From Naegleria gruberi (lineage: Eukaryota): a stretch of DNA of 64,000 nt. Every line of letters begins with the position of its first letter. The stretch's first letter is position 1. This document shows positions 1,749-47,121 of the stretch, piece after piece. Below the pieces are notes generated by a model, which did not search any database, had not been told where the DNA came from, and was given only the letters and a program-made list of their open reading frames with translations. Where the stretch lies: the NCBI GenBank assembly GCA_000004985.1, contig GG738936.1; one strand, 5' to 3'. The position numbers were made by a program, and so were the translations under genes.

Positions 1749-2112
1749 ATTCATGTTTTTGTTTATTCACAAAAGGACAGATTCAACATGAAAATTAGGT
1801 TTTTATTACTTGCAATGATTTATGATGGATCTTTGTGTCAAATCAACAAAATGAAAACAATTTTAATGATAGAGAATCAGTTTTTCGTGATAGATCATTA
1901 TCCAAACTCCACATTAGTTATTATTCGTGTATCTCTCAACCTTTCATCCTTTATTTCATTCAACATTATGAGAACCTACTTTTCCTTTTTGACAACACAT
2001 GATTTGTGCAATTTCTGTTAAATTGCCGGCACTTTATTGGACTAGTAAACAATATCAAAAAAAAAACAAATACTGTTGTTATTCAAATCAAACCATTGAA
2101 TATCATTCACAA

Positions 2113-3591
2113 ATGCTCAACATGATCGTTTCCAACTCACTCAAGACAAGTATTTGTCTTGCCATTATTCTTGTACATTATATCAGAATTGTAAAAGGTG
2201 CTAATCCTGATTGTGCTCTTATTGTTCCTCCAAATCCACTCACTCCTCAAGGATTGGCAACCCCTTATATTTTGAGAGCTGTCAATCCTGCTAATGGTCC
2301 TTGTGTCATGACAGCTGCTGATCAACAATCATTTGTTGAGGGTGTTATTTTCGTTCCAGAGACAAGATCCTTCATGATTTATAATCCTTTGGTAATTACT
2401 CAAAATACTCAACCAGCAATCAAACCAACTGTTCCTACCTTTCCAAAAACAGCAATTGTTGGTTTGTGGTTTGGTACAAATGCTGGTTCTCTTACTTTAA
2501 TTGATTCCAGTAATTCACTTGTTCAAGGTAACTGTGTAAATGGTATTGATGGAGCAAATGATATCTTTGGCCAATTCGCCTCATGCAATGGAAAACAATT
2601 TTTTGAAGCTGTCCAAACGTCAATCAGTCAAATTATTAAGGAAAATGCAACCAATAATCCTGGTTCCTTCTTTAATCCACCAGTTCCAGCACTTGGCACT
2701 GCTCTTGATGGAAAATCATGTATGACTGTCAGAGATTTTGGTATTGTTGACATGGATCAATCAGATAACGTTGTTACATCCTATATCATTAGTACAAACA
2801 AGACATTGGCAGGTAGAACTTGTCAAAATACTGCAGCTAATTTGAAAGCCCTTGGAGGAACTGCTCAAACTCAAACTTTGGTAAATGGTTCTGATAATAG
2901 ATTGTTAGCTGTTGCAATGGCACGTGCTTTAAATTGCACTCCATACATGGCCCCTGATTTGGCAAATAATGGCCAATTGACTCAGTCATTGGCATTGGAT
3001 GAGATTCATGCTAAATTGAAACAAAAAGCACCGATTGCTCTTCTTCCAAAAGGAAATCCAATGGTAAGAAGCAATGATCAAGCAAACCTTGAAAAACTCA
3101 ACTTGTATAGAGCTGCTGTTTTTCAACCACAAGTTTCCAGTGTTGCATTTGCTTCCACTCGTCTCTATTGTAAACATTACGCAGTTGTGGCACCTGCCAG
3201 AATATTCCTCGACAAGTCTATCACTTTGAAATATGCAAGTCCTGATACTGGAGTTGCCAATAATTTATTCACATTCCTAGCTCAGAGATTTGTGAATAGT
3301 TGGGAAGGATTGAAATGTGGTTGTATTCTCGATATGCCTTGTCCAATTACTATTGTTGTAGATAAGAATGGAGTAACAACAGATGCTAGTTTATCCACAA
3401 TGATGGCTAGATCTGTAAATGTTGATTCTTTGATGGATCAAATGGTTTTGGAATTTGATGGCTACATGGATGAAAACAACACATTGGATGTTAGAGCTCT
3501 TGTTAGTGAGTCAAATGGTGTTTTTACAAACAATGGTCCTGTGTATATTCTTCTTACCATTGTTGTGTCTATCATGTTCAATCTGTTGTAA
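2113..3591 (+). CDS. Secreted or GPI-anchored glycoprotein of unknown family.
   Basis: A long ORF whose likely start, MLNM at 2113, is followed by a signal-peptide-like hydrophobic stretch (SLKTSICLAIILVHYIRIVKG). There are many N-x-S/T sites, several Cys, and a C-terminal hydrophobic tail (ILLTIVVSIMFNLL) consistent with a GPI signal or TM anchor. The gene is flanked by two identical tRNA-Lys genes. Confidence 0.5.
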   Translation: MLNMIVSNSLKTSICLAIILVHYIRIVKGANPDCALIVPPNPLTPQGLATPYILRAVNPANGPCVMTAADQQSFVEGVIFVPETRSFMIYNPLVITQNTQPAIKPTVPTFPKTAIVGLWFGTNAGSLTLIDSSNSLVQGNCVNGIDGANDIFGQFASCNGKQFFEAVQTSISQIIKENATNNPGSFFNPPVPALGTALDGKSCMTVRDFGIVDMDQSDNVVTSYIISTNKTLAGRTCQNTAANLKALGGTAQTQTLVNGSDNRLLAVAMARALNCTPYMAPDLANNGQLTQSLALDEIHAKLKQKAPIALLPKGNPMVRSNDQANLEKLNLYRAAVFQPQVSSVAFASTRLYCKHYAVVAPARIFLDKSITLKYASPDTGVANNLFTFLAQRFVNSWEGLKCGCILDMPCPITIVVDKNGVTTDASLSTMMARSVNVDSLMDQMVLEFDGYMDENNTLDVRALVSESNGVFTNNGPVYILLTIVVSIMFNLL

Positions 3592-3676
3592 ATAAAATTC
3601 TTTGAATATATTAATTAGTAAGAAATGGTTGTAAGGCCGAAATAATGATTAGTGGGACAAATATTCCTTAATATCT

Positions 3677-3749
3677 GCCCGTCTAGCTCAGTCGGTAGAG
3701 CGCAAGGCTCTTAACCTTGTGGTCGTGGGTTCGACCCCCACGGTGGGCG
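3677..3749 (+). tRNA. tRNA-Lys (anticodon CTT), second copy.
   Basis: A 73-nt sequence identical to 1676..1748, including the 3' flank GATTCAT and a downstream T-run. It is a direct repeat flanking the 2113..3591 gene. Confidence 0.9.
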
Positions 3750-3792
3750 ATTCATATTTTTTCTCTTAATCCTTGTGAATGAATACCTTTAT

Positions 3793-11372: not shown

Positions 11373-11938
11373 GCGCCTTTTTAATTGGCTGGAATATATT
11401 ATGCGTCCACTTCTAAAACGGCCTTTTTTAATTATTAATAATTATTAAGAAATTGAATTTTACCGGAATCAAAATCAAATTTTCTTAATGAATTTCTTCA
11501 TAGATCAGTGAGAGAACTCTTCTCAAATTCAATTGAACAATCACTTCCTGACAATTACATGCACTTAACCATCATTTCTAATGTTGCAATATTCAAGTAT
11601 TGGAGTTAATTTGCTTCAAATTCACAACTTCTATCGGAAGAATTCCATGATGATTATTATTTAATTCTAACTTGTTGGTTTCTGTGGTAGCTTGCCAATA
11701 AATCAAGCTTTGCCATCAATTTAATTTTAATGGTGATGTTATCTATTTGACGAATTGTCTTGTGAGTTGCTAACAAATTTAAATAAATTTTTAATTTAAA
11801 AGTGTGTTCAATAAGGTTTGCTTCGTGTTCAAGGAATTTTTTTTAAAGCCTTAAAAAATAAAATCCCACAACAATGCGCTAATCAAACAGCACACCAAGC
11901 GCAATGAATACATGACAGATTTTGCTCTTTTTCGAAAC

Positions 11939-12088
11939 ATCTTTCTCGGCCTTTTGGCTTTGATCGAGTGTAGTATCTGTTCTTTTCAGTTTAATAGCTG
12001 AAAGCGTCCTACGGGGCGCGTTTACTATTAACTCAATTTTTTGTCGGGTCCAGAGGTGTGCCTCCTTGGAAACAAGTTGAGTGCACCC
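11939..12088 (+). ncRNA. U2: U2 spliceosomal snRNA.
   Basis: The 5' end ATCTTTCTCGGCCTTTTGGCTTTGATCGAGTGTAGTATCTGTTCTTTTCAGTTTAATAGCTGA nearly matches the universal U2 5' region, which carries the branch-point-binding GUAGUA. An Sm site (AATTTTTTG) and a 3' end GTGCACCC like the human UGCACCC are also present. Confidence 0.85.
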
Positions 12089-12264
12089 TTTGGTAGGTTT
12101 CAAGCAGACATTGCACTATCCGTCAGTTTTGGAGCCACCCTTTCTCTCTATTATCAATTGAATTTAAAGTAATATGTTTAAAAGTTCTCAAAGAGATAAA
12201 GTATTTTCAAAATATTAAGATGAACTTTAAAAAATTAAGAATACATTGAATAGTGGAGGAATTG

Positions 12265-14523: not shown

Positions 14524-14694
14524 ATTATTTTAAACTAACTAATTGGGAATTTAAGGATAATATCAAAAAGGAAGGACATTGTTATCTGTCATTAATTAAA
14601 ATTTCGGTCTTGATGGCACCAAACCATGGCCTAGAACGATGACAGAACTTCTTACATTAAGGCACATTAAGGAAACATTTCATTATGAATGTAA

Positions 14695-14765
14695 TCGGGC
14701 GTGGTATAGTGGTAGCATTCCAGACTGTCACTCTGGCGACCCGGGTTCAATTCCCGGCGTTCGAG
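14695..14765 (+). tRNA. tRNA-Asp (anticodon GTC).
   Basis: The acceptor TCGGGCG pairs with CGTTCGA (with G-U pairs). The D-arm is GTATAGTGGTAGCAT, the anticodon stem-loop is CCAGA-CTGTCAC-TCTGG, and the T-arm is CCGGGTTCAATTCCCGG. It is very similar to the eukaryotic tRNA-Asp-GTC consensus. Confidence 0.85.
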
Positions 14766-15009
14766 ATATAATTTTACACAATTTCTTTAATTTTATATTT
14801 TGTATGTTCAACTTTCTTATTACTATAATAGACATAGTATTGTTGGGCCAATTTATATGCAAATTATTCAAAGTGAAAGATTGTTTTAATCTAAATAAAT
14901 ACCAGAGTGTAAGTGTGAGTGTAATACCGAATTAAGGTCGATCGAAACACATTATTTATTGTGCCTAATGCTGCTTCTTATTCAAAATTAAGATTTTGAT
15001 ATTAAGAAT

Positions 15010-15129
15010 GGGTACGGCCATATCACGATTCATGCACCTCATCCCGTCCGATTTGAGAAGTTAAGCATCGTCGAGCCACATCAGTACTGAGGTTGGAGAC
15101 AACTTGGGAACCTGTGGTGCTGTAGTCTT
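15010..15129 (+). rRNA. 5S ribosomal RNA gene.
   Basis: The sequence GGTACGGCCATATCACG...CATCCCGTCCGATTTGAGAAGTTAAGC...AGTACTGAGGTTGGAGACAACTTGGGAACCTGTGGTGCTGTAG shows the conserved 5S blocks and box C region, and is similar to dictyostelid 5S. A T-run terminator follows. Confidence 0.85.
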
Positions 15130-15132
15130 TTT
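15128..15132 (+). terminator. Pol III T-run terminator of the 5S gene.
   Basis: TTTTT lies immediately at the 3' end of the 5S sequence. Confidence 0.6.
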
Positions 15133-15262
15133 CCCTTACTTGAAAATAATATTAGTGAAGTCTTGTTTTCTTCTTATTATCTCTTTTTTGAATTGTATGG
15201 TTGTGTTATAGTCAAGTGAATTAAACAAATAAGATAAACTTAAATATTGAACATCAACAACT

Positions 15263-15808
15263 TTATAAAAAAGTGGACTCATCATCAGAAAAGAGTAATA
15301 ATGCTTCAAAATTGTAACTCGATTCTTGTGATGGTTGTTGTGGATTAGTTTCATTTGCGAAACCAAATAATGATTTAAGAGTTGGCACATCCAATTGGTC
15401 AATTGAGTTTAGTGGAAGACTGGATAGAAAACTTGCAATATTGAGAAATTCTGAACTGTTATTGGATGGAGAAATGGGTTGTTTGGTGGGAATGGAAGGA
15501 GAATGACCATGTTCATTGATTGATCTTTTGGATTCAATCTTTTCAGTAAAAATTACTGTATCTTGGTTTCTAATAGTTTCGTCATCAGTTTCTTCTTGGA
15601 TTACCTTGTAAATGAACACATCTGCATTGGGATCTTCATTATGGAATACAAAGTAATTCTTCAGCAATTTGTTATTTTGCATATCTTTTCTCAATCGTTT
15701 TAGTTTCGGTTCTTGCTTTCTGCACTTTCCTTCAAGTTTAGTTTTCACTCTCTTCGTTTCGTCAATGAAAGAAACCTTTGCACTTCTCGAATTACACCAC
15801 GTATGCAT
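15263..15808 (-). CDS. Hypothetical protein lying between the two 5S genes, with a basic N-terminal region and an acidic C-terminus.
   Basis: A 181-aa ORF with the basic stretch KRVKTKLEGKCRKQEPKLKRLRKD and the acidic tail FEALLLFSDDES. No family was recognised, and it could be non-coding. Confidence 0.3.
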   Translation of the reverse strand: MHTWCNSRSAKVSFIDETKRVKTKLEGKCRKQEPKLKRLRKDMQNNKLLKNYFVFHNEDPNADVFIYKVIQEETDDETIRNQDTVIFTEKIESKRSINEHGHSPSIPTKQPISPSNNSSEFLNIASFLSSLPLNSIDQLDVPTLKSLFGFANETNPQQPSQESSYNFEALLLFSDDESTFL

Positions 15809-16806
15809 TTCGTATTGTTTTTTAAGATTTGTATTTCTCTGTATTCAGATAATCGAAACTAAAGCTCTTTGTTTCTTGAAAGGATAAATGATGAAAATTC
15901 GCGTAATCCTAATAGAGCTCTTCCATAGATCTCAACATGCCAGAGAACTATTAGAAATACCATGAAATGCATCTCGAGTATCGAGATTAGTTCAGTTTAG
16001 TGTTTTGTGAATAAAATAGAAGCACAAGTCCAAAATAAGCATTACTATGCATTGGCAATGTTAAGAGGTGAAATACTCAAAATGGAAACATAGAAGAATA
16101 AGTACTGTGTTTCAAATAATGAAAGGATTTCCTTACTGCTGACAAGTCCTGATTCATGACAAGCACATGACTTGTTAAACTGTTGATAAATTTGGCCTTT
16201 CCTAATCCGTGTATTATTTAATTTCGAGAATGTTGTGTTGAAAATTATCGGTGCTTCTTTTTGAGATTTGAGAATGCCAACCTATTCCATTCATTCATTC
16301 AACTCGGTATGCAAATAAATTAATTGTAGAAAACTAAAATTTTTATGAAATGTTAATGGAAAGAAAATTAATTTGGATAATCAATGTTTATATTATTGAT
16401 ATAATTATACTTGGTTTCAATTATTTATTTGGACCGGAAGCCTGCCAGGAATATGGCGACGATCCCGCTACAGTCTTTGACTGTATGAACAGTGAAGGCA
16501 ACTAATCTATTGATTGTTGGTTCAGTAAGTTATTGTTTAGAAAAGCTTGCCACCTGACCATCTATTTATCACCTTTGAATTTGATCTATTTAGAAAGAGA
16601 AACTTTTGGTTGATCAATTTTCGATAAAATTTCCCTTTCGAATTTGAGTCTTCAAATATTGAAATAGTGAAGATGCTGTGCAATTGTTCATAGAAAATGT
16701 TTCTAAACCAAGTTGACCCAGGCTATCATGTAAATTGTAAATAATCAAAATAAAGTATCCTTCTCAATAAGTTCTTACCGAGCAATATCTTATTTGCTAA
16801 AAAAAA

Positions 16807-16924
16807 GACTACAGCACCACAGGTTCCCAAGTTGTCTCCAACCTCAGTACTGATGTGGCTCGACGATGCTTAACTTCTCAAATCGGACGGGATGAGGTGC
16901 ATTCATCGTGATATGGCCGTAGCC
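16807..16924 (-). rRNA. 5S ribosomal RNA gene, second copy, inverted relative to the first.
   Basis: The reverse complement GGCTACGGCCATATCACGATGAATGCACC...GGTGCTGTAGTC differs from the first copy (15010..15129) only near the 5' end (GGGTAC versus GGCTAC, and ATTCATG versus ATGAATG). A run of 8 A on the plus strand at 16799..16806 gives a T-run terminator on the minus strand. Confidence 0.85.
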
Positions 16925-17043
16925 ATTCTCAATATTAAAATCTTAATATTAAATAAGAAAACGGACAATATTCATTAATTTTTGCAAGGAATATAAAACG
17001 AATACATATCTTAAATATTTAATACATTTAAATTGGATATGAT

Positions 17044-18467: not shown

Positions 18468-21026
18468 TTACATCCAATACATATTACCATCCTGTGCAGA
18501 ACCTGATTTCACTGACTGTTCATCATCAGTTGATGAGCTTGTTCCTGGTTGAGCAATTTCAAATCCAAGAGAAAAAGAACTGGAAGTTGAGCTCATTGTG
18601 GATTCTCTGCTTGATGGTTTCTCTGAAAGAATAGTTTTGATATTTTCCATGAATGATGTGTAGGCCAAATTGATGAGAATTAACTTGACAATGACTTCAA
18701 TCTTTTCAAATACATCAAAGTGAGCGAGGGAGGAAATTGCCTTCTTGGCCTCAGTGTTAAATGTTTGAATGGAGGAGCGAGGGAAATCAGAAAGATTGGA
18801 AATATTGTTTTGGTCAATTAGGTAGCTCTCTACAATCTTTTTGTGAAGTTTGGCTCTTTGTTGAGGTTTGTTTGTGAGCTTGTAAGTTTCCAATTTTTCA
18901 ATCATTGCCATGTATTTAGAGGCATTAGGAATTGGGCACAATTGTAAGAATCTTGATTTGAGATAGTCATCACTGATAATTCTATTAAAATCGAGAATTT
19001 TCTTCATTTCTTCTAATTTGGTTTCTTGATCTTGGAGTGATTGTTGAAGTTCATTTTCTTCACTCAAATTGATGGCAACAATTACAAAGGCATCACTAAC
19101 TTGGCCTTCTTTAATTAGCAATCTGACATTGTAAACTTTCAATTGGACTGGTAATTGTTTGGATGTTATGGAGAAGATGTTTGTTTTCCATATACCATTA
19201 TCGCTAATTTCAGCAAATTTCTGTAGCAACTCATCGAGAGGTGTTTCCTTAAAGAATTTGTCAATGGTATCATGGAGATAGTTGACTTGTTGCTGATTTT
19301 CATTACTGTCCACAAGCTTATTATCAAAATAACTATTAGTATTGACAATCAATCCAGTACTCTTTTCAACAATGGCAATAAACTCATTAATACTATTCAT
19401 GATGCAACGATTGGATTGTTCTTGAATTGAAGTTCTTTCAAGCATTTCTTGCATTGTATCCATGTCACTAACTAGCTTTTCTTGATTCTTTTTCAAACTG
19501 GCCAACATTTGATTAATCTTTGATGAGAGAGTACCAATTTCGTCGTGACCCAATTGAGGAATTGTCTTGTTAAAATCATTTCCACTCTCATAGAAATCTC
19601 TAACAGATTTGGATAATTTTAAAATTCTTCTCAATACTGATGATTCAATAAAGATGACAACGCCAGCTGACAATACCAATACGAAGAATGTCATGACAAA
19701 CCACACGACAAGGAAGGAAGCCATACCAACTTGGAATGAACTTCTTTGAATATCAGTTCTAAACACTACTGTCTTTCCACCTGTAATGTCATTGTACATT
19801 TGATAGGCAGCCATTCTTTCATTTTGAGAACCAGCTGAGAAGGAAGAGAACTTGTTAGTAATGGTCTTGGAGCATTGTCTTCCATGGAGAATATAATCCG
19901 AGTTACTGGAAGATTTTCCAATATCAATAACCTTCACAAGAGATGCAGCATCATTTGTCCAATCAGAGTAAACATTTGTACTCGAAATATTGGTTGGTAT
20001 CCATTCACTAGTGATAGCATCAAGAGAATCTGAGATTGCATTAGATGTTGACAACTTGAAAGCACTTGTCTCATATTCACTTTTCAGGTCATAGGTCGTA
20101 ACACAAAATTGAGTCCTCTCTGAGATGTCGAGCAGATAATCATAGGTATTATACTTGGCAAAGGTGAGCATACCAAATGATTCCAGTGAGTCATATCCTT
20201 GAATTGGCATTGCATTCACAAGAAGTACGTTTGATAAAATTGAGGAATAGTTGGAAACTGCTTGTTGTGATGTTTCACTTGTTGCCAATTCTGAAAGTTT
20301 CTTACTTGGTATCATTAATCCAATGTGTCTAGTCGATGGATTTTCCAAATTATTGATAAAGAATTTCCTATATTCATTCGATTGACCATCAACAGTTTCT
20401 TGATCTAGATTAGTCAACTCAGATGGTAATCCTTCAATTGATACACCTTTAAAACAATGAATTCCTCTTAGCATTGTTCCATTTAAATAGTAAAATAAGG
20501 CCATATTTACGTTAACTCTATTCAAATAATCACAATTCATATAATCTGACATGTATTGGTCAATTGTCTCTTGTGAAGCTCCATTTACCAACTCAGTTGT
20601 CGAATCAAACGATCCATATTCAAACGTACGATCTGACAATAGCTTTAAATCATCAAACAATGCTCTTGAAACTCTCCTAGAAGATTGAGTCGATTCCACA
20701 CGTTCAACATTATGAAATATCAAAAAGAATGAGGTCAATAAAATTGCCAAACAAAAGCACACCAACAATATGAACATGACAACCAACACTGAAATTGTCT
20801 TTAAACGTAATGATGAATGTTTCTTGAATATATTCTCTTGTTGCTGCGTCGTATCTGGTGCATTGTATTTAAAAGTTAAATTTGCAATTTCTTTCAACTC
20901 TATTTTCATTTCTTTTAATTCTTCCGAATTGCTATTATTATTATTAATGGATGGAGAATGCTGAAGAGATGTTGCGGAAGATGATGGAATTGATTCAACA
21001 ACTGAAAGGTTGAGTTGTTGCGTCAT
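18468..21026 (-). CDS. Receptor-like protein: TM1, an extracellular sensor domain of about 300 aa, TM2, a HAMP domain, a PAS-like region and a C-terminal RGS-like domain.
   Basis: An 852-aa uninterrupted ORF with a verified ATG. TM1 is ISVLVVMFILLVCFCLAILLTSFF. The extracellular region is Cys- and N-glycosylation-rich. TM2 is MASFLVVWFVMTFFVLVLSAGVVIFI. A HAMP signature follows immediately (RRILKLSKSVRDF...LGHDEIGTLSSKINQMLASL). The C-terminus resembles an RGS domain (FNRIISDDYLKSRFLQLCPIPNASKYMAMIEKLETYK...FDVFEKIEVIVKLILINLAYTSFMEN). Confidence 0.6.
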   Translation of the reverse strand: MTQQLNLSVVESIPSSSATSLQHSPSINNNNSNSEELKEMKIELKEIANLTFKYNAPDTTQQQENIFKKHSSLRLKTISVLVVMFILLVCFCLAILLTSFFLIFHNVERVESTQSSRRVSRALFDDLKLLSDRTFEYGSFDSTTELVNGASQETIDQYMSDYMNCDYLNRVNVNMALFYYLNGTMLRGIHCFKGVSIEGLPSELTNLDQETVDGQSNEYRKFFINNLENPSTRHIGLMIPSKKLSELATSETSQQAVSNYSSILSNVLLVNAMPIQGYDSLESFGMLTFAKYNTYDYLLDISERTQFCVTTYDLKSEYETSAFKLSTSNAISDSLDAITSEWIPTNISSTNVYSDWTNDAASLVKVIDIGKSSSNSDYILHGRQCSKTITNKFSSFSAGSQNERMAAYQMYNDITGGKTVVFRTDIQRSSFQVGMASFLVVWFVMTFFVLVLSAGVVIFIESSVLRRILKLSKSVRDFYESGNDFNKTIPQLGHDEIGTLSSKINQMLASLKKNQEKLVSDMDTMQEMLERTSIQEQSNRCIMNSINEFIAIVEKSTGLIVNTNSYFDNKLVDSNENQQQVNYLHDTIDKFFKETPLDELLQKFAEISDNGIWKTNIFSITSKQLPVQLKVYNVRLLIKEGQVSDAFVIVAINLSEENELQQSLQDQETKLEEMKKILDFNRIISDDYLKSRFLQLCPIPNASKYMAMIEKLETYKLTNKPQQRAKLHKKIVESYLIDQNNISNLSDFPRSSIQTFNTEAKKAISSLAHFDVFEKIEVIVKLILINLAYTSFMENIKTILSEKPSSRESTMSSTSSSFSLGFEIAQPGTSSSTDDEQSVKSGSAQDGNMYWM

Positions 21027-30734: not shown

Positions 30735-31721
30735 ATGTTAGAAAGACAACCACTTGTTTATCAAGCATCATTTGATGTTGTTACAAACCAATCAGTGTTT
30801 ACTCCTTCTCTACTGTTGAGGGAGTACAAGCATGTGAAGGGAATAAGTACATTCACATCTTCAAGAGTTGATTATCATTCTAACTCAGTTAGTTGGCAAT
30901 TACCACAACAATTCGAAACTGAAACTCTTCCATTGTTGGACAATTTATTGAACAGACACAGTGCATGGTTTCTTCCATTCTACATGTTCTCAATGTTGGC
31001 TGCATCGTTATTCAGTTTGATTGGTTCTGCATTGCCAACTTTTATTGGTTGCATTTTCATGTTGTTTTTCAATTATGAGAGAAATAGAAAATTGAAGAAG
31101 AATATGGAAAATATTATTGAACAAGAAAATGAACTCAATTTCAAACCAAAAGGTTTATTGTTGGTTTTGAATCCAAATGGAGGAATTGGAAAGTTTGATT
31201 TGGGTGGAAGTTGGACTTTGAATATTGTGTCAAATGCTTCATTCATTGATAATGGAACTCCAAATATGAAAATTCATGAAATTGTTGCTACTAATGATAC
31301 AGTCACTCGTTTATTTAATCAAGAACTTCCACAATGTATTTCAGAAAGATTTGGTCTTTCACAAATTGACTGGGGTGAAACAATTGAAGAAATGAATAGA
31401 ATTTATTTGAGTGAAATTGAAATGGAAGAAAGGTTAATTATCAAACCATTGTATTGTTATTTGTTTGCATGTTCCTTCCTTTTTAACATTCCAATTCTTG
31501 TTACATTTCCAATTCCAATCATTTATTATTTAATTGTCAAGTATTTGAAAATTAACAAATTTAAACAATCCAATCAAGTATTGATGGAATCTTTCATCAG
31601 TGAGAGAAATGAGAAAGTATTTGTACCTAAAGGATTATATTTGAATTTAATTCAAGAGAAAGCAATCGCTTCAGTTTCCACATATCAAAATATTCTTCAA
31701 CTCTGTCAATTACAACATTAA
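30735..31721 (+). CDS. Hypothetical multi-pass membrane protein.
   Basis: A 328-aa ORF with a verified ATG. It has a hydrophobic pair near residues 75-105 (FLPFYMFSMLAASLFSLIGSALPTFIGCIFMLFF) and another near the C-terminus (LYCYLFACSFLFNIPILVTFPIPIIYYLIV). Confidence 0.4.
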   Translation: MLERQPLVYQASFDVVTNQSVFTPSLLLREYKHVKGISTFTSSRVDYHSNSVSWQLPQQFETETLPLLDNLLNRHSAWFLPFYMFSMLAASLFSLIGSALPTFIGCIFMLFFNYERNRKLKKNMENIIEQENELNFKPKGLLLVLNPNGGIGKFDLGGSWTLNIVSNASFIDNGTPNMKIHEIVATNDTVTRLFNQELPQCISERFGLSQIDWGETIEEMNRIYLSEIEMEERLIIKPLYCYLFACSFLFNIPILVTFPIPIIYYLIVKYLKINKFKQSNQVLMESFISERNEKVFVPKGLYLNLIQEKAIASVSTYQNILQLCQLQH

Positions 31722-31759: not shown

Positions 31760-34700
31760 TTAATTTAGAATGAGATTATCATTGGAAGGGGTTGAATTTT
31801 TACAATTCGTTTCAATCTTGATTGGATCATCAACAGATTTGTGTGCTGATATTTTGTTCTTTGAAATGGTCAATCTATCACATTCGTCACCATAAATAGC
31901 AAAACTACCATTGGCAGATATTTCATTATCAATAATATCAGCTTCAAATTGTCTAACTTTGACTCCCATATTAGAATTGTTAATAATCTTATTTTCCTTG
32001 ATGGTTGCATATGCTTTTTGAACAATAATACCATCACTATTCTCGGTTATTTCATTCTTTTCAATGATTGGATTTGATTGTTCAACAACAATTATGCCCT
32101 GTTTAGCACATCCAAATATTCTATTGCCTACAATTGAAGGTGTTGCACCTTGTCTTATTTCAATACCAGAATAGACATTGGAAAGAATTTCATTTCCTTG
32201 GAAAATGAGAGTATTATCAATATCCTTTCCCTTAATTGAAACACCACTCTGACGATTGGAGTATATTTGATTGTTTCTAATGGTTGGATTAGAGTTTCTG
32301 AGTTCAAGACCAGCATAGGCGTTTTCATAAATTCTATTCTTTTCAACAGTTCCTCTACTCTTGGTAGCAATCAAAATACCACAAATACCTCCCTTGTAAA
32401 TTTCATTCTCAATGATATCTATATTACATTCATTTGATACTTCGATACCAGCCATGGTATTATCAAATATTTGATTATGCATGAGAGTGGCTTTACATTG
32501 GGCATTCACAACAATACCTGCTGCTTTTTGGCCCATAATAACATTCTTGGTTATTTTCACATCTTTACATTCCTTGAAGAGTTGAATACCTGAACTTTCA
32601 TTTCTGATAATTTCATTTTCTTGAACTGTTCCTGTAGATTGAATCATTAGCAGAGATTTCTTCTTTGAACCAGTGATGAGATTGTTAGTAATCTTGAGTT
32701 GAGATTTTTCAGCAACAATAGCATTTTCGTTCATAACAAATTTGCTGTTATGAATAAAAGCTTGAGAAGATCTAATTTCACAAGCAATACCTTCAGATTC
32801 TCTGAATTCAGAATTGACAATTTTGAGACTGGAATTTCTGGTTGCTATTGTGGAAAATCGGCTGAATTTACAATTCCTAATTTCACATTCAGCTCCATCA
32901 TCAAGTCTGATATGTAAGCCTTGTGATTTTGGATTTCCTCCATTTTGTTGAGGTGTAACAACAACATCAGCACTTTTTGCTTCCTTTGTTGCCTTGAAGA
33001 AAATATTCTCGAATATAATGTTAGAGCCAGCCTCTAACATGATACTACCAGCTTCTCCAAGTGTAATGATTGGATAAAGTATGTGAGCTTGTTTTTCCGA
33101 TTCTTCTCCAATGATATGTATCAGCTTATGGTTCATTTTGGTATTAATTCTAATTTTTTCATTACTATAAAGACCCATTCGCACTTGAATGGTAATCTTT
33201 TGTTTGAATGAATTGGAATTGTCAGAGTTTGATATTGGAACTGGTGTTTGTTTCATATTGACAATATGGTTGAGGGCTTCTGTAATGGAGCTGAAATCTC
33301 CCTTTCCTGTATAGTCAACTACAAATATATTGTCCATAGAGGTCTTTTGTTCAACAACAATTTCTTGTTCACTCTCATTCGATTCAATCATTGGAGTTGA
33401 TTCATCACTTGGTGGTTTTGAGGCAGTATTTGAGGCAACAGTTACATATCTTGGATGCTTACGAATAGACTTCAAAGGGCCATAAGGAGTTTCATCTCCA
33501 TTCAAGAAAACTTCAGCGAATGATTTCAAACATTTCCAATATTGGGCATGTTGAATAATTACTTGTCTGATAGCAACATTGGTGGCCTTTGATGGTGGTT
33601 TGATAGAAATTGGAGATGGAGGCAAGTTCAATAAACTTCTCAGAGAAGCAGTTGCACATGATGCTGTTACATCTGTCTTATATCCACCTTCGAGAGCTAA
33701 AACAATTTTACCACCTGCCAATTGTTTTAACATACCAATAATATGTTCATATCCACTTGGTGTTAAGGACATTCTTCTTCCCAAAATATCACCCTTGGCA
33801 GCATCAAAACCAGCTGACACAATGACCAAGTCAGGTGCAAACTCTGTACAAACAGGAATAATCAATTGTCTGAAAATGGCAATATAATCAGAATCACCAA
33901 AGGTAGCAGTGGATGGTATCTTATAGTCTTTTGGAGGGAGAGGTATGTTCAATGTGTAACCTTCACCCTTTCCGATACCAACTTCTTCTAATGAACCAGT
34001 TCCAGGGAAATAATTTTGCTCGAATCTGTGAATGGAAACATAGAGAATAGATGGATCATCCTCAAAAATTTCCTGTGTACCATTACCGTGGTGAATGTCA
34101 AAGTCAATGATGGCTACTCTACCAACAGATTTGAATTGTTGAGCTACACGAGCTGCTACAGCAGCATTGTTAAAGAAACAGAATCCCATTGGATCTTCTG
34201 TTTGAGCATGGTGACCAGGTGGACGTACAATAGCCATTCCGTTTTCCAATTCTCCATTCAATACCTTCTCAGTTAGTTTAATTACACCACCTGCTGCTAA
34301 TCTTGCTGCTTTAAGACTGAATTGATTAATTTGGATATCATGCTCGTTATCTTGCACGATACCTCTCAATAAATTATGGTTTGAAGTTGTAGGATTGAAT
34401 TGTCCTTTAAATTCAAAGAAATCATCAATATATTTTTCTGTATGGACCAGAGCAAGTTCTTGTTGTGTCACTTCTCTTGACTTCATAATTTCACATTCAT
34501 CCAACAAGTTGTGTTCTTGAATCATATTCCAAATATGACTAATACGAACTGGTGTTTCTGGTATTGGACCATCATGAAGACACATTCTAGCATCATATAA
34601 TAATCCTGTTTTCTTTGGTTGATATTTTTCATTGAGGGATTGATTTTGAGTTGATAATTCAATAGGCCCCAACACTATGGAAGATTTTTCAGTGGTTAAA

Positions 34701-37653: not shown

Positions 37654-40566
37654 ATGTCATCATTACCAACATCCATTGTTGCCTCTTCTCATCATGGAAT
37701 AATTACTAATAGTAATCATTTGCAAGGCAAAAAAGCAACCACAAATTTATCTTGTTTAACTACAAGTCTATTGTTGGATAGAACCCACAATCATCACCAA
37801 CATGAAGAACAACAAATAATAATCGGAAGTAGTAGTACAGACAATGGTAGTGATGATAGGATATTAGAGAGTAATTGTAGTAATAATTATATAGTAGGAA
37901 AAGAAGAGGATGAAATTAAAGTGGAAACATCAACTTTAGATAATCATTGTTCTACAACAAAGGGAGAAAAAACACCAGTATCTCCTGCTAATGAAACAGA
38001 AGAACAGAATGTTGACAATACTCTCGAATCACTTTGTATTGAATACTTGATGAAGAATATCGAAAACTTTTCAAAGCCTCCTTCGAGTGTGGTCGATAAT
38101 AATTATTATGAATTTCTTGAAAAGGTTGAAGCTAAACTTGGCAATCAACAAGCACCACCACAAACTAATGGTTCTTCTGCAGCTTCCTATAAGCATTTAT
38201 TAAAACAAAGAGCAAGAAGTTCTTCAATTGGAAAAGTTGGTGGTGGAGGTGGAAATATTACAAATTATTTGCCAGCAACATTTGTGATGAGTCAACAAGC
38301 ATCGGAAGAGGTTTATCCATTTCCACAAGCTGTTTCTCAATTAATTGTGAATGGATTGTGTACCTCTAAACAAATTAGTCTTCCACTTTTAATCAAGTTG
38401 AGATATTCTGGGTTATCGAATTTGAATTTATCTTTGAATGGACGTGTTCATGATGATTGGATGATGTTATTGAGAGAAATACCTTTGGAAACTTTAAATT
38501 TATCACATTGTTTAATCACTAATCAAAGTTTATATTATGTGAAAGGAAAGAAACATATTATACCATGCCCAGAAAATGAGACGAATAATGAAAGGGGTTC
38601 TCCTACACTTCCTGAAGAGTCTGAATCTGAATCTGAAAGTGATTCTGAAGAAACACAAAAGAAGAGTGTTACTTTTTCTTTTGATTCAAATCCAAACAGA
38701 AAACCTCCTAAAAAGAAAAAGAAAAAGATAGTAGGGACTAGTTCTGTCTCCACGCCTCACAAGAGAGTACCTTCTGCTGATAGTAATGGTTCAGATAAGG
38801 ATAACGATAAGAAAAAGAAGAGTGGACCAAAGAGTACAACTTCTAGTGGTTCTGGTGGAAGTGGCTCATCTTCTAAAAAGAGAAAAGATGGTTCCATTCA
38901 AGTCACCACACCTTATACTCTTTCCCGAACACTCAAGTCATTGAATATGTCAAATATTCATGAAATTACGCATGATTCATTCAAGTTGATTCCTCAACTA
39001 TTCCCAAATCTTACAGCTTTGTCATTTGAGGGATGTAGTAACTTTACTAACAAATGCTTGGAACATATTTGCGGAAAAGTTCACAAATCTGAGGGAACCG
39101 TTCAAGAAAGTTCCAGTGTCAAACAATTGAGAAGAAACCTTAAAAAACTCAATTTGAAAAAGACGAAAATATCTGATGCTGGTGTCAGAAATTTACAAAG
39201 TCTAATCAACTTGGAATATTTAAATTTATCCGAGAATAAGCAATTGACGAACCATTGCCTAAAATTCTTGAAAGATTTAAAGTTTCTTTCATTCATAGCC
39301 ATTGATGGCAATGAAAGAATGACAGAGGATGGGTTGAGCTATTATCTCGGAGATGGAATAACCGGAATTTCAATTTCTGGAACATATATGGGTGATAACC
39401 CAGAACATTTTGCAAATTTTCCAAAGCTTAACTATTGGAATGCTTCAAATACCAATATTCACTCTCTGCAGAACAATGTTAAAAATTCATTTGCCTTCAA
39501 TAATCTCAGTGTGCTTAATCTATCTCACTGCAAGCTACTGGATGATAATTCTATGAAGAAATTTTTTGAAAGTTTGAATTGCCTATGCGAGGTGAATATT
39601 TCGAGCACTTTCCTTGATGATGAAGCTGTTAGTGGTCTATTGTCTTCAAAGAGTACTCTTAAAATTTTACATATCAACAACTGTGTACATATAACTGATC
39701 TTACCTTCGAGCATATTCTTCCATCCTTCAATATCATTACCGAGCTAGGTTTAAGGCAGATGAAGCACATCACTTATGCCAATGGATGGTGTCATTTATT
39801 CTCTGCTGACTTGCCAAAGGTAGAAAAACTATATTTGACTGCTAGTTTTATTAACCAAAGGTCTGATCAAGTGGAGCAAGAAGGATTTAAGGAAGCATTT
39901 GCAAATATTTGCAAAAATTTGAAAATATTGGATTTAAGTTGTAATTTGAAAGGAATAGATGATGAAAATATTTCAGAGGCTATCTCTGCAATGACCAATT
40001 TGGAGTGGATAGATTTTTCGCATTGTGATAGAATTTCCTCAAAAACTGTTGAAAATATTGCCAAACACTGTTTTAGACACTTGACTCACTTTGCTATTAG
40101 TTATTGCAAGAAGGTAGATGGAGCAAGTATTCCACTATTAAGGTCCTGCAAAAGCCTTGAAGTATTGTACCTATCAGGTATCAATATTCTTCCACAACAG
40201 TTTGCCAAACTTGCTACTTTGGAGAATATTTCTGACTTGAGTGTGATGGATTGTAAAAAGTTGGAGCAAAGGGATGGTTGTACCGAATTCTTGTACATAC
40301 TAAGCAACCAATGTAAATTCAAAAACAAATTACTCATGCTAAATTTGTATGGCCTTTACATTTATGAAGATTCTTTGGGATTTTTAGTTAGTTTGGATAA
40401 TTTAGTCACACTAAGATTGTCAACTCATGAAGAGCTTGAGGACCTGGGAGCTTTGTACGATCTACACAATCTGGTCTATTTGAAAACCAATGTTCTACAA
40501 TCCAAATCTCTTCAACAAGATTACAAAGCCTCCAAAGGATTCAACAGAGAAGTTTTCTCAATTTAA
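37654..40566 (+). CDS. Leucine-rich-repeat protein with cysteine-containing (RNI/AMN1-like) LRRs and an acidic/Ser-rich N-terminal half.
   Basis: A 970-aa ORF with a verified ATG. The middle is low-complexity (SESESESDSEE, poly-K, GSGGSGS). The C-terminal 500 aa are LRR_cc-type repeats (LNLSHCKLLDD, INNCVHITDLTFEHI, DFSHCDRISSKTVENIAKHC, ISYCKKVDGASIPLL). Confidence 0.6.
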   Translation: MSSLPTSIVASSHHGIITNSNHLQGKKATTNLSCLTTSLLLDRTHNHHQHEEQQIIIGSSSTDNGSDDRILESNCSNNYIVGKEEDEIKVETSTLDNHCSTTKGEKTPVSPANETEEQNVDNTLESLCIEYLMKNIENFSKPPSSVVDNNYYEFLEKVEAKLGNQQAPPQTNGSSAASYKHLLKQRARSSSIGKVGGGGGNITNYLPATFVMSQQASEEVYPFPQAVSQLIVNGLCTSKQISLPLLIKLRYSGLSNLNLSLNGRVHDDWMMLLREIPLETLNLSHCLITNQSLYYVKGKKHIIPCPENETNNERGSPTLPEESESESESDSEETQKKSVTFSFDSNPNRKPPKKKKKKIVGTSSVSTPHKRVPSADSNGSDKDNDKKKKSGPKSTTSSGSGGSGSSSKKRKDGSIQVTTPYTLSRTLKSLNMSNIHEITHDSFKLIPQLFPNLTALSFEGCSNFTNKCLEHICGKVHKSEGTVQESSSVKQLRRNLKKLNLKKTKISDAGVRNLQSLINLEYLNLSENKQLTNHCLKFLKDLKFLSFIAIDGNERMTEDGLSYYLGDGITGISISGTYMGDNPEHFANFPKLNYWNASNTNIHSLQNNVKNSFAFNNLSVLNLSHCKLLDDNSMKKFFESLNCLCEVNISSTFLDDEAVSGLLSSKSTLKILHINNCVHITDLTFEHILPSFNIITELGLRQMKHITYANGWCHLFSADLPKVEKLYLTASFINQRSDQVEQEGFKEAFANICKNLKILDLSCNLKGIDDENISEAISAMTNLEWIDFSHCDRISSKTVENIAKHCFRHLTHFAISYCKKVDGASIPLLRSCKSLEVLYLSGINILPQQFAKLATLENISDLSVMDCKKLEQRDGCTEFLYILSNQCKFKNKLLMLNLYGLYIYEDSLGFLVSLDNLVTLRLSTHEELEDLGALYDLHNLVYLKTNVLQSKSLQQDYKASKGFNREVFSI

Positions 40567-42020: not shown

Positions 42021-43724
42021 ATGTCCAACAATGTTATTAGTGATGATGAGGGCAATTTCATCAGAGAGTGTACTCAGCTTGGACTCTCATCGTCTTTGAA
42101 ATTACAACAAGAAAAATCCAAGCAAAGACAAGAGGAATTAAAGTTACAAATTGAACTTTGCAAATTAAATTCATTCATGGATGAAGCCAACATTAAGAAA
42201 CGTAAGCTAGAAGAATCTTGTCTTCAGATTGTTTCCGATAGTAAAGTGCAGAAAACAATTAGAAAGACAGAAATTTGTGATGATGTTATTGGTAAAATAT
42301 TAGAATATCTTCACAGAGACCTTGAACTTTTCAAATATTTGGGTGTTTCTAAACAATTCCAAAGAATTATTCTTGAAAAATCAAAACATTTGATAATAGA
42401 GTTTGAGAGAAAGATATTCCCTCCATATCAATTGCCAAATGTTGAGTCTCTGACTTTTTTTAGTGACTTTGAGCACAAAGAACAAAATCAATTTATAACT
42501 AAATGTGTAAACATTAAGCATCTTTTTATTGAGAGAATGGATTTTAAAAATGATGGACCAGGTGATAACACTGTTGATTTCAAGTTCAAGAAACCATCTA
42601 TAGAATCAATAGTTATTAACGTGTCTCACAATCATTTTGTTTTGAGAGATCGAAATCTATTTAATTTAAAAAAACTTGAAATGTGGGAGCCATACGCAAT
42701 TGATATGGATAATGTTATCAATAATTATACATACACTTTACAAATACTGTCGTTGAAAGAGTTGAGGAAAGTCGATATTACTCCAATCTTAAACTTACCA
42801 CTTCTATGCAGTCTAGAATTGGAAGGACTGAATGAAAATCAAGTAATTTCTATTTTAAACACATCGAAGAAATTGGAAATACTTAAAGTCGATATTGATG
42901 AAGCACCTTCTGTTATTGGTTTAATTGAACCTGACACTAAATCTATTTTAAATTTGAAATATCTCAACGTAAGCAATGGATATTCAAATTTTACTGGTAA
43001 ATTATGGAAATATAATTTTTCAAATTTGAAAGCTCTGAAGATTGATGTATTCAATGATGATTGGAAATTTTTCTCCACCAATAATACTTTCAGTAATTTA
43101 GAAATTTTTAAATATGAGAGTTATTCAAATGAGTCTGTAACAGCAAATCTGGGAAAATGCAAAAACTTGAAAAATTTGAAACATTTATCTCTACATTTTT
43201 TTGAAACTGCTTGTTTAGATTATGGTATTTTTCAAAAACAGAAGTTCAAGCATTTGAAATCATTATTGATTTGTGGATGTAGAAGCTCATTTATTTGTAA
43301 CTTGGCTCAAATTGAAGATTTGAATAATTTAAAGATATTACGTGTAATCATAGACAATGAAACTGATCTGATTAATTTGACCAAATCAAATGTGTTTGCA
43401 ATGTTGAAATATTTGGGAATTAGATATGATCATGCATATCCACAAGAATTTTTCGAGAATCTGAGCTCCAACTTTAAACAACTGGTTGAATTGGATTGTG
43501 GATTCAAAAACTACGAAGAGATTGAGTTATTAAGAAAATATCATCCAATCAATTTACGTATCATTACAATTAACAAGAATGAAATGCAAAGTTTGGGTTA
43601 CAAAATATTATCAAATTGGAAAGAAATTGCATGGAAAGACAAACCGATTAAGTCATATATTGACCACAAATTAGAAAAAATTGAAAGCACAATAGCCTCA
43701 CAAATTTTGAGTAGAGATTTTTAA
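42021..43724 (+). CDS. F-box-like plus leucine-rich-repeat protein.
   Basis: A 567-aa ORF with a verified ATG. An F-box-like segment (ICDDVIGKILEYLHRDLELFKYLGVSKQFQRII) lies at residues 85-120. Irregular LRR-like repeats follow (LKKLEM, LKVDIDE, LKALKID, LKHLSLHF). Confidence 0.5.
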   Translation: MSNNVISDDEGNFIRECTQLGLSSSLKLQQEKSKQRQEELKLQIELCKLNSFMDEANIKKRKLEESCLQIVSDSKVQKTIRKTEICDDVIGKILEYLHRDLELFKYLGVSKQFQRIILEKSKHLIIEFERKIFPPYQLPNVESLTFFSDFEHKEQNQFITKCVNIKHLFIERMDFKNDGPGDNTVDFKFKKPSIESIVINVSHNHFVLRDRNLFNLKKLEMWEPYAIDMDNVINNYTYTLQILSLKELRKVDITPILNLPLLCSLELEGLNENQVISILNTSKKLEILKVDIDEAPSVIGLIEPDTKSILNLKYLNVSNGYSNFTGKLWKYNFSNLKALKIDVFNDDWKFFSTNNTFSNLEIFKYESYSNESVTANLGKCKNLKNLKHLSLHFFETACLDYGIFQKQKFKHLKSLLICGCRSSFICNLAQIEDLNNLKILRVIIDNETDLINLTKSNVFAMLKYLGIRYDHAYPQEFFENLSSNFKQLVELDCGFKNYEEIELLRKYHPINLRIITINKNEMQSLGYKILSNWKEIAWKDKPIKSYIDHKLEKIESTIASQILSRDF

Positions 43725-44937: not shown

Positions 44938-47121
44938 TTATAAAAATTCTTGGGCAAACTTTAAAAAAAACAATGGCAAAAGTTTTGGAGGTAATTTTAA
45001 AATTGTCTCACAATCAGGAAAGAGTTGTCTTCTGTGCTTAATTCCAAATGTAATCAATTCATTATAAAAACCCTCAAAACATTGCAAACCAATATAATTT
45101 TCACAAGCTGAAACAATATCTATATAATTATCAATGGAAATTGATAATTCATTCTTACAATATTTAACTAAATATTCCATTTCATGTTTCATGGCCATAT
45201 CAAGAAGACGAAGCAACTTTTCGTATTTAACATCTTGAACTGGAGTTTCATAACATGTCTTGATGATAATTTCCAAAAATTCAAAATCATCTGAAGAATC
45301 TGGAATAAAAATATCATTACTGAGATCGGTAAATGTTGATCCACTGTCAAACATGGCATTAAATAATGTACTTGAAGAGCTTAAAATTGTTTTGTGGCAA
45401 TACAAGTAATTATCTTCATCAATTTGAATTTTCAAATCACTCGTTTTCTTATCGTTATATAATTTACCAATATCCATCAATTCTATTTCTACTGCTTCAT
45501 CAATAATTATATAATTTGGTTGGGACAGTGAGTGTTTTGACAAGATGTTAGCAGCATTTTTCACAATGATTGGAAGATTTGGCAAACTATTGACTCCTCC
45601 TGGAGTTTTCATTTGAATGGCAGCAAATTCAACACAATAATTATTCAAATATTCAAGAATATAATTTTCTAAATGAAAATCACTACATTGAGAAAGATAA
45701 ATTTCAATTTGTTCCCATTTAAATGAAAGATTTTGAATAGTAAGTGATTGAATAAATTGAGTTGTGCATAATTTTTTCAATTGAATAAATTCATTATTCT
45801 TGAAAAATCCTAAAATGAATAAAACATCCAATATTTCATCATTGTTAAATTTCAATTGAATTTCATTATTATAAATTAAAGAGTCAATTAATTTTTGAAT
45901 AATTTCTTGTTGAATTGAATTCATTGATGAAATTAGTGATTCATTCTTTAAAATATATTTACAAAATAGTGGTGATACCATTTCAACGAGAGGAATGAAT
46001 GCATAAATTGATGAATTAAACAATAAATCTCTTGAATGTTTTTTCAACTTGGCTTTGCCATACGTGGAAGAATATATAGGGCCAATGTGTGGATATTTTG
46101 AAAAATCAAATACTGAATCACCATCATATCCTAATTCTCCATTTCCAGCTATTGTTATAATATTTCCATTTTCCAATATTTTTCTAATTCTGTTATTTTG
46201 ATAATCAGCAATATAAACTTCATTATCTTGGGAAACAAAAACACCTACTGGACTATACAATTTTGCATTTACTGCAAGACCATTATCACCACCATATCCT
46301 AATTTTCCATTTCCTGCTATCGTTATAATGTTTCCATTTTCCAATATTTTTCTAATTCTGGTATTTTGGTAATCAGCAATATAAACTTCATTCTTTGATG
46401 AAACAAAAACATCTACTGGACTAGACAACTTTGCATTTACTGCAGGACCATTATCACCACTATATCCTTGTTGTCCATTTCCAGCTATTGTTATAATATT
46501 TCCGTTTCTTAATATTTTTCTAATTCTGTGATTACCAGTATCAGCAATATAAACTTCATCATTTGGCGTAACAAAAACGCTTGATGGATCAAAGAGTGGT
46601 GCATTTACTGCAGGACCATTATCACCATTATATCCTTGTTGTCCATTTCCTGCTATTGTTACAATATTTCCATTTTCCAATATTTTTCTAATTGAGTGAT
46701 TACCAGAATCAGCAATATAAACTTCATTCTTTAGTGAAACACAAACACTCGATGGACTAGCCAGTTGTGCATTTACTGCAAGACCATTATCACCATTATA
46801 TCCTTGTTGTCCATTTCCTGCTATTGTTATAATGTTTCCATTTTCCAATATTTTTCTAATTCTGTTATTTTGATAATCAGCAATATAAACTTCATTCTTT
46901 GATGAAACAAAAACATATGATGGACTAACAAGTTGTGCATTTACTGCAAGACCATTATCACCACTATATCCTTGTTGTCCATTTCCTGCTATTGTTACAA
47001 TATTTCCATTTTCCAATATCTTTCTAACTGTGTGATTACCAGTATCAGCAATATAAACTTCATCATTACTTGATGAAACAAAAATACTCCTAGGATTAAA
47101 CAATTGTGCATTTGTTGCCAT
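44938..47121 (-). CDS. NHL-repeat beta-propeller protein with a C-terminal BTB/POZ domain.
   Basis: The N-terminal 330 aa are seven or more near-identical NHL units (YIADTGNHTVRKILENGNIVTIAGNGQQGYSGDNGLAVNAQL). The C-terminal BTB-like segment reads KIQIDEDNYLYCHKTILSSSSTLFNAMFDSG...FEFLEIIIKTCYE. Confidence 0.65.
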   Translation of the reverse strand: MATNAQLFNPRSIFVSSSNDEVYIADTGNHTVRKILENGNIVTIAGNGQQGYSGDNGLAVNAQLVSPSYVFVSSKNEVYIADYQNNRIRKILENGNIITIAGNGQQGYNGDNGLAVNAQLASPSSVCVSLKNEVYIADSGNHSIRKILENGNIVTIAGNGQQGYNGDNGPAVNAPLFDPSSVFVTPNDEVYIADTGNHRIRKILRNGNIITIAGNGQQGYSGDNGPAVNAKLSSPVDVFVSSKNEVYIADYQNTRIRKILENGNIITIAGNGKLGYGGDNGLAVNAKLYSPVGVFVSQDNEVYIADYQNNRIRKILENGNIITIAGNGELGYDGDSVFDFSKYPHIGPIYSSTYGKAKLKKHSRDLLFNSSIYAFIPLVEMVSPLFCKYILKNESLISSMNSIQQEIIQKLIDSLIYNNEIQLKFNNDEILDVLFILGFFKNNEFIQLKKLCTTQFIQSLTIQNLSFKWEQIEIYLSQCSDFHLENYILEYLNNYCVEFAAIQMKTPGGVNSLPNLPIIVKNAANILSKHSLSQPNYIIIDEAVEIELMDIGKLYNDKKTSDLKIQIDEDNYLYCHKTILSSSSTLFNAMFDSGSTFTDLSNDIFIPDSSDDFEFLEIIIKTCYETPVQDVKYEKLLRLLDMAMKHEMEYLVKYCKNELSISIDNYIDIVSACENYIGLQCFEGFYNELITFGIKHRRQLFPDCETILKLPPKLLPLFFLKFAQEFL
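46130..47100 (-). repeat. Tandem repeats of about 141 bp encoding the NHL units, highly similar at the DNA level.
   Basis: Blocks such as CCATTTTCCAATATTTTTCTAATTCTG... and ...ATTATCACCA(C/T)TATATCCTTGTTGTCCATTTCC(T/A)GCTATTGTTA(T/C)AAT recur about 7 times with few substitutions. Confidence 0.7.

Follow-up and report, generated by a model that had tools for sequence, protein, structure and literature searches.

In Naegleria, the 18S, 5.8S and 28S ribosomal RNA (rRNA) genes reside solely on an extrachromosomal circle of about 14 kb, the CERE, which is present in 3000-5000 copies and for which 5S is not listed (PMC5805870). The CERE supplies the other half of the RNA of the same ribosome. Feng et al. 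(2012, PLoS One 7:e36878) reported 279 putative nuclear 5S genes in N. gruberi, away from the ribosomal DNA (rDNA) unit, and ascribed to them a TATA box upstream, an internal control region and terminators made of a T-run (PMC3369914). Dictyostelium discoideum is, like Naegleria, an amoeboid protist with extrachromosomal large rRNA genes; however, its 5S gene lies inside the rDNA element (PMC1635290) whereas that of Naegleria lies outside, and the two belong to different supergroups. Scattered 5S genes are uncommon but well known from Neurospora crassa, Schizosaccharomyces pombe and Acanthamoeba castellanii (PMC1635290, PMC9528979), the last with about 100 dispersed copies (PMC9528979). As in Naegleria, these organisms have many single 5S genes in unique flanks, away from the large rDNA, but they are fungi (N. 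crassa, S. pombe) and Amoebozoa (A. castellanii) unrelated to Naegleria (Heterolobosea), whose large rDNA is additionally extrachromosomal. The scattered 5S genes of all three have a short upstream element and a terminator of their own. Here we analysed a 64,000-nucleotide stretch of N. gruberi DNA (the window; scaffold_92:15900-79899, the last 64,000 bases of a 79,899-bp scaffold, offset 15,899), which contains two 5S rRNA genes facing each other for convergent transcription, copy A on the plus strand and copy B on the minus strand.

Our overall reading, to which we assign a probability of about 0.85 jointly with the mechanistic account set out below, is that copies A and B are both ordinary genes within the dispersed nuclear 5S family of N. 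gruberi. We scanned the 64-kb window for RNA families with Rfam at gathering thresholds. Both copies matched the 5S family RF00001 over its full length (model positions 1-120) and above its gathering score of 38 bits, with ends within 1 nt of those given by an earlier interpretation made from the letters alone (the sequence-only reading), which had called two convergent 5S genes here. Table S1 of Feng et al. places two 5S genes on scaffold_92, at 30911-31028 and 32704-32820 (PMC3369914). With the scaffold offset these become window positions 15012-15129 and 16805-16921, and coincide with copies A and B within BLAST end effects. Copies A and B are therefore entries R33416 and R33699, already catalogued in 2012. 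In every testable respect they agree with eukaryotic 5S rRNA and with the catalogued location of the N. gruberi family. The paper describes the family to which these two genes belong as lying outside the rDNA unit, with an internal control region, a TATA box and a T-run, and is silent on strand, on inverted pairs and on the excess of pairs 1.1-3 kb apart that we describe below.

Over their full length, two open reading frames (ORFs) of the window, at 37654-40563 and 42021-43721, match exactly the N. gruberi NEG-M proteins XP_002668915.1 and XP_002668916.1. The GC content of the window is about 32%, a poor fit to D. discoideum with its value of about 22%. Only 5S, tRNA and U2 were listed as RNA families in the scan of the 64 kb at gathering thresholds, with no other rRNA family (18S, 5.8S or 28S), and ordinary protein genes occur throughout. 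Since no other rRNA family accompanies the 5S genes and protein genes run through the whole window, we take this DNA to be nuclear and not an rDNA element, and on these grounds the sequence-only reading was right to place the 5S copies on a chromosome. What characterizes an extrachromosomal rDNA, namely 18S, 5.8S and 28S on the same circular or palindromic molecule of about 14 kb, is missing from the families listed for the window. In contrast to the CERE, which carries 18S, 5.8S and 28S only, the window is part of a 79.9-kb nuclear scaffold rich in protein genes. The choice of D. discoideum as the frame of reference, on the other hand, has to be abandoned given the exact protein matches to N. 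gruberi. Because a chromosomal 5S family is already published for this species, the location of the two genes is the expected state and no anomaly.

The other 5S copies of the assembly are mapped in the published Table S1, and our re-analysis of it finds 279 genes on 117 scaffolds, indicative of a dispersed family. Table 1 of the same paper marks 'Y' for 'tandem arrangement' (PMC3369914). This label is contradicted by the paper's own supplementary table, which holds dispersed singletons together with an excess of close pairs. A neighbour no more than 4 kb away is found for 56 of the 279 genes. We computed the expectation under random placement over the N. gruberi genome of about 41 Mb. Adjacent gaps of 1.1-3 kb were observed 21 times against 3.6 expected (about sixfold, P = 2.5e-10), and the density of gaps per kb in this range is 3.9 times that at 3-10 kb (P = 2.4e-5), with only one gap below 1.1 kb. 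At a spacing of 1793-1796 bp, copies A and B are typical of these recurrent pairs, whose members lie about one gene length apart. Most simply, the excess would stem from 5S genes being duplicated locally into the adjacent intergenic region, the genome being gene-dense. This excess is the sole mildly new point of our analysis, and the orientation of the pairs is absent from Table S1. The reading that goes furthest, in which N. gruberi 5S genes are placed non-randomly, preferentially as close pairs about one gene length apart, owing to a specific mechanism or role, we consider quite improbable. No 5S pair was found on the contigs of relatives, which cover only 24% of the relevant distance range, too little for this absence to be informative.

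A repeat search delimits the repeated unit sharply. The two arms of the inverted repeat, 14975-15132 and 16802-16959, are 158 nt long, 96% complementary and separated by 1669 nt, and each runs from 35 bp upstream of the gene through its 119 nt into the beginning of the T-run. Past position -36 and past the T-run, the identity between the copies falls to background level; we detected no homology between the two flanks outside the 158-nt arms and, by eye, no target-site duplication at the arm ends. Within the genes, the copies differ at exactly three positions, with G3, T21 and C22 in copy A and C3, G21 and A22 in copy B. ATTCAT and ATGAAT are exact reverse complements of each other, and the difference at 21-22 is therefore readable as a single micro-inversion. 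The differences at the 5' end and the local inversion proposed by the sequence-only reading are both borne out, the latter as a possible interpretation. From position 23 to 119, a stretch that takes in the whole internal control region, copies A and B do not differ.

To place the two copies among their relatives, we used a 27-nt core of the 5S gene. One metagenome scan with this core yielded 13 contigs, on each of which one 5S gene lies amid unique sequence, and the scan of genome contigs and viral contigs yielded 0 matches. We then aligned 13 sequences, the two window copies and 11 related metagenome 5S genes, on the Rfam structure. In this alignment 98.2% of the cells are paired and 13 pairs show compensatory changes, values equalled by 0 of 500 shuffles, while slid controls reached 28-42% paired. 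Copy B has no broken pair and differs by only 1 nt from the 5S gene of metagenome contig L006; the other metagenome genes are more distant relatives, at 26-32 differing positions from copy B. Copy A alone in the alignment breaks two pairs (G3.G116, U21.C57). At pair 21-57, nine of the nine other distinct sequences have G-C, and G21 and A22, at both of which copy A deviates, are common to all 12 other sequences. Pair 3-116 covaries: copy B and L006 have C-G there and the remaining relatives have G-C, and the G.G of copy A therefore resembles half of a switch. The similarity value of copy B in Table S1, 0.75, is the commonest of the table (161 of 279 by hand count), and that of copy A, 0.7417, occurs in 40 entries (hand count). 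Because copy B is free of broken pairs and stands 1 nt from L006, and copy A alone combines two broken pairs with changes at G21 and A22, copy B reads as the canonical gene and copy A as a mildly damaged, derived variant, which would probably still be transcribable. As a separate observation, metagenome contigs L002-L013 (VFQM/VFQO) represent an uncultured relative with several 5S variants at different loci, which differ by compensatory changes in model helix 2 (C17-G61 to T17-A61; G18-C60 to A18-T60). This suggests that several putatively functional 5S variants are kept within one dispersed family in that organism.

We next consider the elements that would drive these genes. The sequence-only reading had set the similar upstream sequence at about 45 bp; the similarity is real but spans 35 bp, over which the blocks of copies A and B are identical at 31 of 35 positions (89%; P about 1e-13 given the base composition). 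Both blocks contain an (A/T)ATTAAGA core at -24..-17. Within the genes, AGTTAAGC at +50..+57 agrees, as read from the sequence, with the box A consensus cited in PMC3369914, and box C of both copies departs from the consensus at 2 positions. Each T-run begins at the last base of its gene, consistent with the earlier claim that each copy has its own terminator. The -35..-1 block is a candidate promoter. Its 89% identity between copies A and B exceeds what promoter function alone seems to need in the relatives, and may in part stem from the shared origin of the two blocks in a 158-bp unit that was duplicated or converted.

Taken together, each 5S gene would most likely be an independent RNA polymerase III (Pol III) unit, driven jointly by the AT-rich, TATA-like block at -35..-1 and the internal control region and terminated at the T-run right after the gene. 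The two units lie in neighbouring intergenic regions, separated by a small protein gene that is unrelated to them. The pair most likely arose by local inverted duplication of the unit of about 158 bp, or by gene conversion over that tract. Copy A would since have gained its three changes, possibly through one substitution and one micro-inversion, breaking two helix pairs; it is probably still transcribed, and its product would be a slightly sub-optimal or non-functional 5S RNA. Several points weigh against this account. Feng et al. found no recognisable TFIIIA in N. gruberi (PMC3369914), and the box C region of the N. gruberi gene is off the usual consensus at the covarying pair 85-92. L006, the closest relative, matches only about half of the aligned upstream positions (by-eye count), and in the distant relatives the shared sequence is limited to an AT-rich, TATA-like patch at about -30..-20 and YTC immediately before the gene. 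Recent duplication alone could explain the conservation of the block with no promoter role, and the transcription of both copies is something that we infer.

The 1669 nt between the arms contain an ORF already pointed out by the sequence-only reading, and this is an annotated gene on the minus strand, encoding a predicted protein in which no Pfam domain was found. Its homologue (P0006, 56% identical) is encoded on a 4.2-kb metagenome contig, L015, which shows 71% nucleotide identity to window positions 15363-15849. In the window, copy A lies 134 bp past the stop codon of this gene; on L015 there is no 5S within 3.5 kb downstream of the homologue, whose downstream neighbour is an unrelated 1111-aa gene. 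On the copy B side of the homologue, L015 extends for 182 bp only. With no 5S gene beside the L015 homologue, copy A does not hold a conserved place, in keeping with a family whose members turn over in evolution. We also considered whether the spacer ORF is spurious or repeat-associated, and rejected this given its annotation, the 56%-identical homologue and the homologue's contig lacking 5S.

How firmly the locus can be read as two ordinary family members depends on the competing explanations. That it represents an unusual chromosomal 5S locus of D. discoideum, in which 5S is normally carried on the extrachromosomal rDNA palindrome, has a probability close to nil: its support is limited to AT richness and to Asn-rich repeats at the window end, and is outweighed by the exact N. 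gruberi protein matches, the GC content of the window and the presence of both genes in the catalogue of N. gruberi scaffold_92. A far more serious matter is whether copy A is a pseudogene, in which case the locus would comprise one working gene, copy B, and a decaying duplicate. The broken pairs G3.G116 and U21.C57 and the departure from 12 of 12 other sequences at G21/A22 speak for such decay, and copy A also scores 10 bits below copy B in Rfam and ends in a shorter T-run (5 T versus 8 T). Yet only 3 changes in 119 nt separate it from copy B, the stretch 23-119 with the whole internal control region is the same, and its upstream block and terminator are intact; moreover, single mismatches are present in other dispersed copies of the relatives too, and its similarity value of 0.7417 is found in 40 catalogue entries. 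We consider the pseudogene explanation unlikely, though a real possibility.

The excess of close pairs also invites a functional interpretation, in which the convergent pair would be a module, with Pol III genes serving as paired chromatin boundaries or regulating or mobilising the enclosed gene. It would account for the roughly sixfold over-representation of 5S pairs at 1.1-3 kb and their 3.9-fold higher density per kb relative to 3-10 kb, and a second pair of Pol III genes in the window, two tRNA-Lys genes 2001 bp apart, likewise brackets one ORF. However, the tRNA-Lys pair is direct and not inverted, the catalogue does not give the orientation of the other 28 close pairs, and in the relative, where the enclosed gene has a homologue with 71% nucleotide identity, the 3.5 kb downstream of that homologue are free of 5S. 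The absence of homology past the 158-nt arms, together with that of any target-site duplication visible by eye at their ends, also argues against it. Local duplication into the nearest tolerated intergenic region explains the spacing with no need for a function, and we regard the module as highly improbable. Two ordinary members of the dispersed family, related by a local inverted duplication or conversion, remain our preferred reading, and the coordinates of the genes, their elements and their neighbours are collected in Table 1.

Table 1 Features of the 5S locus and its surroundings in window coordinates.
Feature	Position	Strand	Remarks
5S rRNA copy A	15010-15128	+	Rfam RF00001 95.6 bits, E 1.7e-19; catalogue entry R33416; two broken helix pairs
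5S rRNA copy B	16806-16924	-	Rfam RF00001 105.4 bits, E 4.4e-22; catalogue entry R33699; all 34 model pairs intact
Upstream block of copy A (-35..-1)	14975-15009	+	TTCTTATTCAAAATTAAGATTTTGATATTAAGAAT; AT-rich, TATA-like; putative Pol III upstream promoter
Upstream block of copy B (-35..-1)	16925-16959	-	TTCTTATTTAATATTAAGATTTTAATATTGAGAAT
T5 run, putative Pol III terminator of copy A	15128-15132	+	Read from sequence
T8 run, putative Pol III terminator of copy B	16799-16806	-	Read from sequence
Protein-coding gene, 181 aa, predicted protein, outside the 5S units	15263-15808	-	100% match to N. gruberi P0005
GC-richer patch, unexplained	16440-16500	.	49% GC versus about 32% in the window, measured on 16430-16510
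tRNA-Asp (GTC)	14695-14765	+	ARAGORN; Rfam tRNA 54.4 bits; CATTAAGG at -30..-23, TTTT at +7..+10
U2 snRNA, full-length	11937-12142		Rfam 121 bits

The GC-richer patch noted in the spacer by the sequence-only reading is present as described. It gave no Rfam match at E<=1, and its fold z-scores are marginal (-2.4 on the minus strand, -1.4 on the plus strand). The possibility that it is a decayed 5S gene was rejected, as 145 of 300 shuffles scored as well in local alignment, and the patch is probably unrelated to the 5S genes.

The description of the surroundings as a Pol III-rich neighbourhood stands in part. The tRNA-Asp gene lies upstream of copy A across a gap of 244 bp, against 245 given earlier, and provides one such gene. 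The second support, U2, lies 2.9 kb from the 5S gene, in agreement with the earlier figure of about 3 kb; but U2 has no T-run directly downstream and no ATTAAG upstream motif of the kind found at the tRNA and 5S genes, and so shows no sign of Pol III transcription.

The upstream sequences of the tRNA genes show a related motif. The 8-mer CATTAAGG occurs at 14665-14672 and 1646-1653, which is exactly -30..-23 of tRNA-Asp and of tRNA-Lys copy 1, in flanks that show no other relationship; at the corresponding distance, 3647-3654, tRNA-Lys copy 2 carries GATTAGTG. The ATTAAG core may represent an upstream element shared by Naegleria Pol III genes, as judged from five genes only. The two tRNA-Lys(CTT) genes, 1676-1760 and 3677-3761, form a direct repeat of 85 nt with 99% identity, 2001 bp apart. 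Besides the tRNA, the repeat takes in 12 nt with the T-run, and a single 530-aa ORF (1999-3591) lies between the two genes. It resembles the 5S pair in its spacing of about one gene, but differs in its direct orientation.

Two further features of the window were recorded. The gene adjoining copy B (18468-21026, minus strand) encodes a protein with CHASE4, HAMP and a weak RGS domain, and its only homologue detected outside N. gruberi is from Willaertia magna, at 35% identity. The 22.7-kb neighbourhood of this homologue holds different genes and gave no Rfam match, and we dropped synteny via this gene since the neighbouring genes differ. At 46117-47118, five to six tandem units of 168 bp with 81-88% identity lie inside a 727-aa minus-strand ORF (44938-47121) and presumably encode a 56-residue protein repeat.

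In itself the result matters little: it corrects the assignment of the organism, and the locus is a known pair of a known dispersed 5S family. It does bear on the CERE literature, where the claim that Naegleria nuclear DNA holds no rRNA genes (PMC5805870, PMC10586121, PMC10112140) overlooks about 279 chromosomal 5S genes. If the close 5S pairs of N. gruberi were mostly inverted and bracketed single genes, this would point to a specific mechanism of local inverted duplication or, in a genome with wholly extrachromosomal large rDNA, to a role as paired chromatin boundaries bound by Pol III.

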